60,032 nucleotides of DNA. Origin: a virus. Shown here in pieces: positions 1 through 8,346 of this stretch (its first letter is position 1; every line of letters begins with the position of its first letter). The position numbers and the translations under genes were made by a program. The notes beneath the pieces are model-generated. The model was not told where the DNA came from. It saw only the letters and a program-made list of their open reading frames with translations, and ran no database searches. The DNA lies in the UHGV virus genome UHGV-0168673; one strand, given 5' to 3'.

Positions 1-49
1 ACGAGATCGCTCAGTGTCTCGTGGGCTCGGAGATGTGTATAAGAGACAG
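1..49. other. Illumina Nextera adapter / i7 index-primer sequence (library artefact, not phage DNA)
   Basis: ACGAGAT + 8-nt index-like CGCTCAGT + GTCTCGTGGGCTCGG + AGATGTGTATAAGAGACAG (Tn5 mosaic end); exact reverse complement of 59984..60032. Confidence 0.9.
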
Positions 50-3303: not shown

Positions 3304-3520
3304 ATTGTTTTTCCGTTAATACAGTAATATCATAGTAACAATCGGAAGAAGTTTTAACTGTGGAAATTTTATTATCAAAATACTCACGAGTCATTTTATG
3401 AGTATAGTATTTTTTACCATAAATGGTAATAGGCTGTTCTGGTCCTGGAACTTCTAACTCGCTTGGGTTAGGAAGTGTAAAAAGAACAACGCCAGAAGTA
3501 TCTTTAAATCGTAAAATCAT
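3257..3520 (-). CDS. Hypothetical protein (position of T4 nrdA.2)
   Basis: 87-aa track ORF; start overlaps td stop (coupled arrangement). Confidence 0.5.
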
Positions 3521-4377
3521 ATTGCCATTTTCCCTTTAATTGCTGGATGCGATTCATAATTTTCAAGGATAAAATCTTTCGGTTTCATGTATTCAGTTAA
3601 CCAGTAAAGCTGTGTTTCGGTGTCACAATTTCCAAACTCTATAGGCCAATCAATTTTAAGTTCACACAGTTCTTTAGGCTCACGACGTAAAATTTCTTTA
3701 CATTGTGCAGTATGATTCATATAGATGTGAGTATTACCACCAGAAAATATCAAATCTCCTGGGATAAGATTACACATCTTAGCCACAATATGCGTCAAGG
3801 CAGCGTACGAGGCAATGTTGAATGGCAAGCCCAAGAAAACATCTACACTTCTTTGGTACCATTGTAAATCAAGATAACCATTACGCACATTAAACTGATA
3901 GAACATATGACAGGGCGGTAATGCCATTTGATTGATTTCAGCTGGATTCCATGCTGAAACGATTTGACGTCGATCAGTTGGTAATTTTTTAATACGATCA
4001 ATAGTTTCAACTAATTGATCCACACCGCCGAAATCACGCCATTGTTTACCGTATATAGGACCAAGTTCACCACTATGATATCCTAGGTCTTTAGCCTGGT
4101 TTTCATAGTTATCGTCCCAAATAGTTTTACCTTGAATAAGACTGCCATGAGTGCGAAGACGTAAATCATTAACATTGGTAGAACCGGAAATAAACCATAG
4201 AAGCTCAGCAATGCATGCATTCCAGGCGAGCTTTTTAGTTGTTACTGCAGGAAAACCTTTGGTTAAATCCCAACGCAATTTAGTACCGAACAAAGCAATT
4301 GTTCCTGTGCCTGTTCGGTCATCGGTTTCATAACCATTTTCAAAAATGTCTTTAATTAAATCTTGGTATTGTTTCAT
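3517..4377 (-). CDS. td: Thymidylate synthase, uninterrupted (no intron)
   Basis: 286-aa continuous ORF; [26 protein letters not shown] and PPCH active-site region match T4 Td. Confidence 0.95.
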
Positions 4378-4422
4378 TTAGTACCTTATATAAATTATAA
4401 TACATTTTATGAAGCTAAATAA

Positions 4423-4770
4423 TCAATACGGTTTAGCATCAAATTTTCTCTCAATTTCAGGCGTGAAATATAATTCTTTACCGCGTTTGGAAAAGCGACC
4501 AATAATATGATAATTATTCTCATCAAACGTGATATTACCAATATCCATAGCTTTCAACCAAATATCGATATTTCTGTCAAGCTTTATATCAAAATTCCAA
4601 TACGGAGAACTATTACCAAAAATACTGCAAGCGGATTCAGTGAAACAACTGCTATAAATTTTGTCTTTAGGAACTATTAATTGATAGACGCCTTTAATAA
4701 ACTGAGGACCTTGCCATTTTGGTTGTTTCGCGTCTTTTTCTAATAGAATAGGGTAATAATTAAAATTCAT
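4423..4770 (-). CDS. Hypothetical protein encoded between frd and td
   Basis: Track ORF 4423..4782 starts at GTG; first ATG (MNFNYYPILL..) at 4770; no recognisable motif. Confidence 0.55.
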   Translation of the reverse strand: MNFNYYPILLEKDAKQPKWQGPQFIKGVYQLIVPKDKIYSSCFTESACSIFGNSSPYWNFDIKLDRNIDIWLKAMDIGNITFDENNYHIIGRFSKRGKELYFTPEIERKFDAKPY

Positions 4771-4790
4771 ATTTTCCGCCACGTATTATT

Positions 4791-5617
<827 letters not shown>

Positions 5618-5628
5618 ATTATCTCCTA

Positions 5629-5961
5629 TTAAAAAGGATCAGGAATATATCCGCTAGCTTTAATCATTTTAATTAACGTTAGCATTCCTTTATTAACCGC
5701 TAGTGAGATTTCATCAAAAACTTCATCACTAAAAAGTTCTAACACACCCTTCTGAACTTTTAATTTACAGCCAACAATTTCGTCATCGCCTATAGTAAAT
5801 TCATTACCACCAATTCCTCCGAAAAACTTAATTACACCAGTTAACTGTCTTCCACGAGAATATGGGTCGTGTGATAAAGTAATATGAGTCACCCCGGGTA
5901 CAGTTTTAAATTGGCAGCGAATATTTACTTGTGAAATTCCAGTTACATGAATATCAGACAT
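5629..5961 (-). CDS. Hypothetical protein
   Basis: 110-aa track ORF with GAGGA SD. Confidence 0.55.
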   Translation of the reverse strand: MSDIHVTGISQVNIRCQFKTVPGVTHITLSHDPYSRGRQLTGVIKFFGGIGGNEFTIGDDEIVGCKLKVQKGVLELFSDEVFDEISLAVNKGMLTLIKMIKASGYIPDPF

Positions 5962-5971
5962 AATATTTTCC

Positions 5972-6214
5972 TCAAATAGACTTTTTCACAATTTTCCAAT
6001 CAGCTTTAAACTGATCAACGTCAGAGTGATAAATCCAAAATCCTGCGCTTTCTCCATCCTCATAAAGAGGGCATCTATCACATTCATCTTCCCATCCCAT
6101 ATCACGCAAAAGATGTTCAGCTTTTTCAACAAGTTCAGAATCTTTACCGATGATATTAAAATACCATTTACCTCTAACTTCTGAATCTTTGATGCTTTGG
6201 CGTTGTAATCTCAT
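5972..6214 (-). CDS. Hypothetical protein
   Basis: 80-aa track ORF; GAGGAG SD and early-promoter module immediately upstream. Confidence 0.6.
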   Translation of the reverse strand: MRLQRQSIKDSEVRGKWYFNIIGKDSELVEKAEHLLRDMGWEDECDRCPLYEDGESAGFWIYHSDVDQFKADWKIVKKSI

Positions 6215-6243
6215 TTTATTCTCCTCAGTAGTTGATAGGGTAA

Positions 6244-6272
6244 TAGTATCACACTACTACCCTGTTGTAAAC
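6244..6272 (-). promoter_or_regulatory. Early promoter (-35 GTTTAC / -10 TGaTACTAT)
   Basis: Same module as at 7235; upstream of ORF 5972..6214. Confidence 0.55.
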
Positions 6273-6274
6273 AA

Positions 6275-6535
6275 TTATTTTTGAATTTTATCGAGCCACT
6301 TACCAAGCTTAATCATTTCTTTAGTAGCCTTTTCCATACTTCTGAACTTAACCAATAGAGGATAGGTATCGACACCCATAACTAAACTGGTTACAAGACT
6401 GTGTTCACCCACAAGCCATAATGAATACGTTTGAATATCGAGTCCGTAATTTCTGTCTTTATGGACCCGTACACCCATCACTTCAAATTTCTCACTAGCT
6501 TTTTCTACCGCATCCAGGAAATCATCTTTAGTCAT
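6275..6535 (-). CDS. Hypothetical protein
   Basis: Track ORF 6275..6577; I prefer the ATG at 6535 (MTKDDF..) one nt after the upstream stop (TAA-T-ATG coupling); the 6577 ATG is an alternative. Confidence 0.45.
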   Translation of the reverse strand: MTKDDFLDAVEKASEKFEVMGVRVHKDRNYGLDIQTYSLWLVGEHSLVTSLVMGVDTYPLLVKFRSMEKATKEMIKLGKWLDKIQK

Positions 6536-6536
6536 A

Positions 6537-6917
6537 TTAGGCCTTAAAAGTTTTTCGCAAAAGTTCAATGATTTCATCTACATTGTTTTCGTCAACAATG
6601 CAGTGAATTTTTGTTACGCCAGAAACCTTGTCTTTGACTTCATCTTCTTCAGAAGTCGGTTCTTTATACTCACGAAAACAATGAAATTCATCTTCGCAAA
6701 TTTCTAAAAGTCTATCTTTGAGGTAAAAATGCTTTCCATTTGCGCATTCAATGTGTTTTACTGCTTTATATCCATTAGCGACGGAAACTTCTTTAACTTC
6801 AAACCATCCGCCATTATCTCGAATAGCTTTAACGATTGATGAATTAGAACGTGGGCTATAATTAATAAATGTATCAATAAGTCTTGGAACAAGCTCATAC
6901 TTTTTGCCGATATACAT
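6537..6917 (-). CDS. Hypothetical protein
   Basis: Track ORF starts at TTG 6974; first ATG (MYIGKKY) at 6917 preceded by GAGGAA. Confidence 0.55.
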   Translation of the reverse strand: MYIGKKYELVPRLIDTFINYSPRSNSSIVKAIRDNGGWFEVKEVSVANGYKAVKHIECANGKHFYLKDRLLEICEDEFHCFREYKEPTSEEDEVKDKVSGVTKIHCIVDENNVDEIIELLRKTFKA

Positions 6918-8247: not shown

Positions 8248-8330
8248 TTTTATTTCCTTTTTAATTTAATTAACAGTTGGTGCTATGACGATGTATGACC
8301 TCATAGCTGGTCAGTGAGATAATTATAATC
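8248..8330 (-). promoter_or_regulatory. Gene 32 mRNA leader: autoregulatory translational operator (pseudoknot plus unstructured UUAAA-repeat region)
   Basis: Minus strand ..GACCAGCUAUGAGGUCAUACAUCGUCAUAGCA..CUGUUAAUUAAAUUAAAAAGGAAAUAAAAAUG matches the T4 gene 32 operator as recalled. Confidence 0.7.
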
Positions 8331-8338
8331 TATTTATA
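8331..8338 (-). promoter_or_regulatory. Late promoter motif TATAAATA upstream of gene 32 leader
   Basis: Exact TATAAATA on minus strand, ~84 nt upstream of the gene 32 ATG. Confidence 0.45.
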
Positions 8339-8346
8339 ATAAGCAA

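Follow-up and report, generated by a model that had tools for sequence, protein, structure and literature searches.

A conserved and probably ancestral gene at the frd-td junction of T4-like phages, with T4 as the exception

The window analyzed here is the whole 60,032-nt stretch of the virus genome UHGV-0168673, and the locus under study is the junction in it between frd and td. The gap from frd to td covers positions 4378 to 4790 and measures 413 bp, as against the roughly 410 bp of the initial annotation, and it holds a single long open reading frame (ORF), for which both the coordinates and the 115-aa product first reported were borne out. We refer to this ORF as X, to its tandem paralog as Y, and to an alternative 68- to 69-aa ORF at the frd-td junction as Z. 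The features of the junction are as follows, in the direction of transcription:

4791-5372, minus strand: frd, dihydrofolate reductase, 193 aa (PF00186 DHFR_1, E = 2.8e-18), stop codon TGA at 4793-4791
4783-4797, minus strand: upstream copy of a 15-nt direct repeat, TAAATGAAATAATAC, comprising the frd stop and td-start-like sequence
4771-4790, minus strand: frd-X spacer, 20 nt, AATAATACGTGGCGGAAAAT, with a weak Shine-Dalgarno (SD)-like GGCGGA
4423-4770, minus strand: gene X (RB32ORF229c; phrog_1928), ATG at 4770, 115 aa, N terminus MNFNYYPILLEKDAKQPKWQGPQF
4378-4422, minus strand: X-td spacer, 45 nt, with a MotA-box-like TTAGCTTCA, a TATAAT -10-like hexamer, and an AAGG SD 7 nt 5′ of the td ATG
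4366-4380, minus strand: downstream copy of the 15-nt direct repeat, TAAATGAAACAATAC, at the true td start
3517-4377, minus strand: td, thymidylate synthase, 286 aa (PF00303, E = 2.5e-95), uninterrupted

An in-frame GTG at 4782, 5′ of the X ATG, would make the product 119 aa; because homologs begin at the ATG, it was not taken as the start. X had been described as SD-preceded, and SD-like sequence is present ahead of its ATG (GGCGGAAAAT) but is weak. An ATG within the frd stop opens a two-codon relic, ATG AAA TAA. The 20-nt frd-X spacer is also found in RB18, T6, and F2/OLB35, whereas NHEP36 and the metagenomic contig L012 have none, the X ATG overlapping the frd stop there (ATGA). In F2 and OLB35, the frd coding sequence is annotated 36 nt longer, running across this spacer into X. 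About 30 nt of the X-td spacer is missing from NHEP36, F2, and OLB35. A sigma-70 scan returned TTGATT-18-TATTAT at 4426-4397, and the equivalent stretch of phage Lutter (MT682714) carries a "promoter" annotation. The composition of the X-td spacer suggests a putative promoter and, with it, that in window-type alleles td may have acquired start signals of its own. The GC content of X is 31.6%, versus 37.5 to 38.3% in the flanks.

To judge whether X is a gene, we compared it with copies in other phage genomes. Other coliphage copies differ from it at 8 to 31 synonymous and 1 to 11 nonsynonymous positions (dN/dS = 0.02 to 0.05), and a 62%-identical metagenomic copy gives a dN/dS of 0.15. The product matches phrog_1928, a family of unassigned function, with residues 4 to 111 aligned to profile positions 2 to 125 of 126 (E = 3.8e-35). 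Searches by tblastn recovered X from 589 of 50,697 phage records, 363 at ≥90% identity (T2, T6, RB5, RB18, RB32, and RB51 among others) and 226 at <60%. The window copy is 100% identical to that of vB_EcoM-S1P5QW and 97 to 99% identical to those of T2, T6, RB5, RB18, and RB51; across the junction stretch as a whole, the closest relative of the window is phage TH09 (99.7%). Because dN/dS is low, the phrog_1928 profile matches, and the gene recurs in 589 records, these sequence comparisons indicate that X is a real gene under strong purifying selection and not a chance ORF. The initial annotation had proposed conservation and coding signal as a check on X, and both were found.

An exhaustive profile HMM search of 1.84 billion representatives returned only 21 clusters, of 95- to 119-aa single-domain proteins bar one spurious match, P0021, a 321-aa repetitive reverse-transcriptase fragment that we rejected as a relative. 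No paralog of X was detected elsewhere in the 60-kb window. GenBank notes name the gene RB32ORF229c, and hundreds of T4-like phages already carry it annotated as "hypothetical protein," so that nothing about it is peculiar to the window genome. The window copy is an ordinary member of the RB32ORF229c/phrog_1928 family, from which it shows no difference, and the family has no assigned function, Pfam model, or solved structure. Literature searches by family name, N-terminal peptide, and locus found nothing on this gene. As the yield of a genome scan, then, X is an ordinary hypothetical gene, catalogued and uncharacterized.

We then asked where X-family genes lie in other T4-like genomes. Diverged homologs (26 to 46% identity) were confined to T4-like genomes and were found between frd and td at every locus examined in at least 10 Tevenvirinae genera, among them Jiaodavirus, Marfavirus, Kanagawavirus, Mosugukvirus, Gelderlandvirus, Winklervirus, and Moonvirus, and also on metagenomic T4-like contigs. 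These orthologs mostly overlap the end of frd. The order in Jiaodavirus PKO111 is frd-X-td; it is frd-X-Y-td in Mosugukvirus PM2, Marfavirus F48, Kanagawavirus ZX14, Gelderlandvirus UTK0003, Winklervirus Kc304, and Moonvirus CF1, with adjacent genes overlapping by 1 to 23 nt except in F48, where td is preceded by an additional 42-aa ORF and a short gap. Contig L012 is arranged frd-X-Y-Z-td, with ATGA overlaps at frd/X, Y/Z, and Z/td and a 17-nt overlap at X/Y. Overall, frd lay upstream with X-family genes next at 27 of 27 loci, and td lay downstream at all 26 loci that reach it; 5 further metagenomic loci show the same placement. X thus lies in the frd-td operon and, as judged by the gene overlaps, is translationally coupled there in most genera. 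Identity to the window across genera is 26 to 62% for X, 43 to 53% for frd, and 70 to 82% for td. The divergence of X tracks that of frd, the pattern expected of vertical co-inheritance. From this synteny, X appears to be a widely conserved ancestral gene of the frd-td locus, and T4 the exception. The initial annotation had proposed a lineage-specific accessory gene and a comparison of frd-td junctions across T4-like genomes: X is indeed accessory, in a nucleotide-metabolism operon, and absent from T4, but its spread over so many records and genera argues against lineage specificity.

Two further ORFs occur at the junction in relatives:

L009, 2808-3155; L011, 2817-3176; L018, 1809-2159; L012, 4332-4673: copies of Y
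L004, 1079-1285; L005, 1079-1285; L012, 4670-4879: Z (phrog_9550), basic, pI about 10.3

Y (113 to 124 aa) follows X in tandem in most other genera and is recovered by the X profile (hmmsearch E = 1e-9 to 1e-18); Y and the Jiaodavirus X ortholog also match phrog_1928. At locus L028, a Y-like copy appears to come before X. The tandem pairing of X and Y suggests an ancestral heterodimer. Z (68 to 69 aa) is unrelated to X and is ATGA-coupled to frd. The L012 copy (69 aa) is 81% identical to the 68-aa ORF that replaces X in the Tequatroviruses P922, JK08, and pSs-1 and is also found in JS98. Z is present at ≥90% identity in about 135 records, JS98 included, and has 40 to 43% identical homologs in Phapecoctavirus phages, which are not T4-like.

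The T4 junction was examined to establish how it differs from that of the window. In T4 (NC_000866; td end 145112, frd start 145109), frd and td overlap by 4 nt (ATGA) with no ORF between them, which agrees with the overlap that the initial annotation ascribed to T4. A three-way alignment gave a clean 417-bp difference between the window and T4, the 3′ end of frd being the same in both. The coliphage junction exists in at least four states, the Z allele described above and the following:

Allele A: frd/td overlap; T4, RB55, fDHCT2, and Mosigvirus G53
Allele B: X flanked by spacers of 20 nt (upstream) and 45 nt (downstream); about 360 records, among them RB18 and T6, and the window
Allele B′: X directly adjoining frd or overlapping it, and separated from td by 13 to 15 nt; NHEP36, F2, and Mosigvirus utam OLB35

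The T4 difference is bounded by the 15-nt repeat TAAATGAAA(T/C)AATAC at 4797-4783 and 4380-4366, the copies of which are identical at 14 of 15 positions and spaced 417 nt apart. When the sequence was shuffled, a pair of this kind turned up somewhere in the 601-nt region in 10 of 300 trials. A simulated deletion between the two copies produced a 75-nt junction that is present exactly in T4. More generally, gene boundaries at the junction share short ...AAATGAA... motifs, which, to judge from their sequence, can mediate precise loss. Homologous recombination in flanking sequence can likewise transfer any allele, as the mosaic phage NHEP36 (L015, 917-2724) illustrates: its frd is 56% identical to that of the window while X and td are 92% and 88% identical, which indicates a recombination breakpoint at the frd/X boundary. 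On the sequence evidence, the T4 junction is best explained by an ancestral module having been lost. X is dispensable, given that null alleles occur naturally.

An association of X with the td intron was considered and rejected. Under co-conversion during I-TevI homing, X would be anticorrelated with the intron; however, X and the intron occur together in T6, Pu-Krd-SF2, EC128, and VEc20, the intron occurs alone in T4, neither is present in fDHCT2, and Z occurs with the intron in JK08 and without it in P922. Since X is found both with and without the intron, intron homing fails to explain the pattern. In T4 and T6, td contains the intron and I-TevI with it; an Rfam scan of the window detected no group I intron. 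In Klebsiella phage PKO111 (L008, 3668-4399), a free-standing I-TevI-like endonuclease gene lies on the opposite strand directly downstream of an intronless td.

To gain insight into the X protein, we modeled it with AlphaFold2 from a 23-sequence alignment (pLDDT = 91.9; pTM = 0.84). The model has strands at residues 6-12, 27-34, 38-40, 48-50, and 62-64, a helix at 68-76, and strands at 80-82, 86-96, and 99-104; X is thus confidently predicted to be a small β-barrel with one helix. The initial annotation had recognized no motif, and the searches agree: X had no match in Pfam (E ≤ 10), NCBIfam, or PADLOC (0 families at E ≤ 10), 23 family members scanned against Pfam likewise had none, and PDB searches with the single sequence and two profiles returned noise only. 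A BFVD structure search returned only uncharacterized T4-like phage proteins, including the 115-aa Y protein of PM2 (TM = 0.66). X has a confident predicted structure with no neighbor among solved structures, the weak structural neighbors being mostly OB folds (HIN, Teb1, S1, RNase E S1, Cdc13, TPP1, RPA, SSB, and RuvA domain I). Across X and Y, residues Q16, W19, G27, G91, K95, and G97 are invariant and L9, Y29, F93, and F102 nearly so; the alignment contains no conserved acidic, His, or Cys catalytic constellation. The median pI is 8.7.

Taken together, the evidence leads us to lean, by a modest margin, toward a joint reading in which T4 has lost an ancestral frd-td module and X is functionally tied to the enzymes of the thymidylate cycle. 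Under this reading, X would be a noncatalytic binding protein, probably a dimer (X-Y, or X-X where Y has been lost), acting as an accessory partner of the thymidylate-cycle or dNTP-synthesis enzymes or as a binder of an enzyme ligand, and its binding face would be formed by the conserved Q/W loop and the GRFxKxG hairpin. We put forward this picture of the protein only tentatively. On synteny and translational coupling, X may be a candidate subunit of the T4-type dNTP-synthetase complex. In protozoa, dihydrofolate reductase (DHFR) and thymidylate synthase (TS) form a bifunctional DHFR-TS with a junction, or linker, region between the two. Like that junction, X comprises about 100 presumably noncatalytic residues encoded between DHFR and TS, in the same 5′-to-3′ order and made together with both. 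In contrast to it, X is a separate polypeptide, bears no sequence or structural relation to the junction, and is dispensable, as T4 does without it; the likeness would be a functional analogy only. A bolder and unlikely version holds that X and Y form a hitherto unrecognized ligand-binding pair of new or very divergent OB-like fold, a dedicated DHFR-TS accessory that would serve as a separate-polypeptide counterpart of the protozoan junction or would tether thymidylate synthesis to DNA or RNA. If true, loss of this accessory pair from T4 would explain why it was never studied. T4 is unrepresentative at frd-td, since most T-even-type phages, T2 and T6 included, carry X; ancestrally there appear to have been two paralogs, at a fixed operon position between two thymidylate-cycle enzymes. 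Natural knockouts (T4) and replacements (the Z allele) make X a cheap target for work on nucleotide metabolism and host interaction.

Alternatively, X could be a host-takeover or counter-defense protein that, as with many small nonessential early genes of T4-type phages, binds a host protein or neutralizes a defense, with its place between frd and td a matter of history. Very close relatives differ in carrying X, Z, or neither, as is usual for accessory genes, the GC content of X lies below that of its flanks, and the product is a small orphan-fold protein without enzymatic motifs. However, arms-race genes tend to diversify and to move, whereas X combines an unusually low dN/dS (0.02 to 0.05) with a single locus in at least 10 genera on different hosts; nor did it match PADLOC, a library of defense systems and not of anti-defense proteins. 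We consider this alternative doubtful. T4-type "hyperplastic" regions hold variable small-ORF cassettes, and seg and mob homing endonucleases insert between T4 genes. The X locus resembles these in being polymorphic between conserved genes in close relatives; it differs in lacking a nuclease motif, in its fixed locus, and in its strong purifying selection, which give X a quasi-core-like character.

X could instead be an OB-type binder of single-stranded nucleic acid, linked to replication or serving in regulation, for example by controlling the operon mRNA or as an ssDNA tether. The OB fold is a five-stranded closed β-barrel in which a helix separates strands 3 and 4. As in the OB domains of SSB, RPA, S1, HIN, and Teb1, the predicted X structure is a small β-barrel, with its helix between what may be the equivalents of strands 3 and 4; the order of strands, helix, and strands fits β1-3/α/β4-5. 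The conserved residues would lie in loops flanking an OB binding face, with Q/W and R/K/G falling, on our mapping, in the would-be L12 and L45 loops. We treat the resemblance to these weak neighbors, dominated by OB folds, as a lead and not as a classification, and this role for X seems quite improbable.

The initial annotation had spoken of an insertion, which in its strict form would be a recent, lineage-specific arrival of a foreign cassette in an ancestral overlapping frd/td. The two genes overlap in T4 and in most Mosigvirus phages, X is lower in GC than its flanks, and the window type has spacers of its own, unlike the ATGA-coupled NHEP36 and L012. Moreover, the sequence after the frd stop, ATGAAATAATAC, resembles the td start, ATGAAACAATAC, and the 15-nt repeat is target-duplication-like. 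As proof of insertion, however, this td-start relic is weakened by comparison with relatives: it matches at 11 of 12 positions in the window but is degraded to 8 or 9 of 12 in RB18, T6, and F2, and in NHEP36, where X is ATGA-coupled to frd, the counterpart of the 15-nt repeat is just AAATGAA (7 nt). There is neither a mobility gene nor an endonuclease motif. Orthologs lie at this position in many genera, and their divergence parallels that of frd. Synteny thus largely refutes a foreign insertion, which we regard as very improbable. The relic is weakly compatible with a reinsertion episode within Tequatrovirus, where X may have been reacquired by recombination, X not being foreign to the subfamily. 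X was also rejected as a homing endonuclease (GIY-YIG or HNH) or mobile cassette, as it had no Pfam or PHROG nuclease match and occupies one locus in all genomes examined.

Finally, it is hardly credible that X represents an additional DHFR of unconventional type or is related to NrdA.2, even though records of JLBYU22, Kelasse, ADUt, and HMD-9 carry "putative dihydrofolate reductase (x2)" labels and an RB18 record notes "NrdA.2," as X matched neither PF00186, the type II (R67) family, nor any Pfam model at E ≤ 10, gave hhalign probabilities of 0.5% to a hand-entered R67 sequence and 1.2% to the window NrdA.2, and has no DHFR among its structural neighbors and no conserved catalytic residues. 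Profile and structure comparison thus lend no support to the labels "putative dihydrofolate reductase" and "NrdA.2" that X carries in OK272484, MW749001, OQ466432, PV287714, and MH553563.

Several other features of the window deserve mention. Between frd and frd.1/frd.2 (5372-6577), the window has extra small ORFs that are absent from T4 and annotated in RB18:

5372-5617: ORF of 81 aa
5629-5961: 110-aa DUF7247 protein
6275-6577: ORF of 100 aa

No relation of X to the neighboring DUF7247 ORF was found. The window genome also lacks the free-standing homing endonucleases that T4 has at the nrdA/nrdB and 32/59 junctions: nrdA is followed directly by nrdB (670-722), without mobE or nrdB.1, and gene 32 directly by gene 59 (8248-8346), without segG. 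At the left end of the window, positions 1-49 (minus strand) consist of the Illumina Nextera adapter CTGTCTCTTATACACATCTCCGAGCCCACGAGAC, the index ACTGAGCG, and then ATCTCGT. This contig-end artifact truncates the nrdB ORF (11-670), leaving about 200 genuine codons followed by a spurious C terminus and stop.
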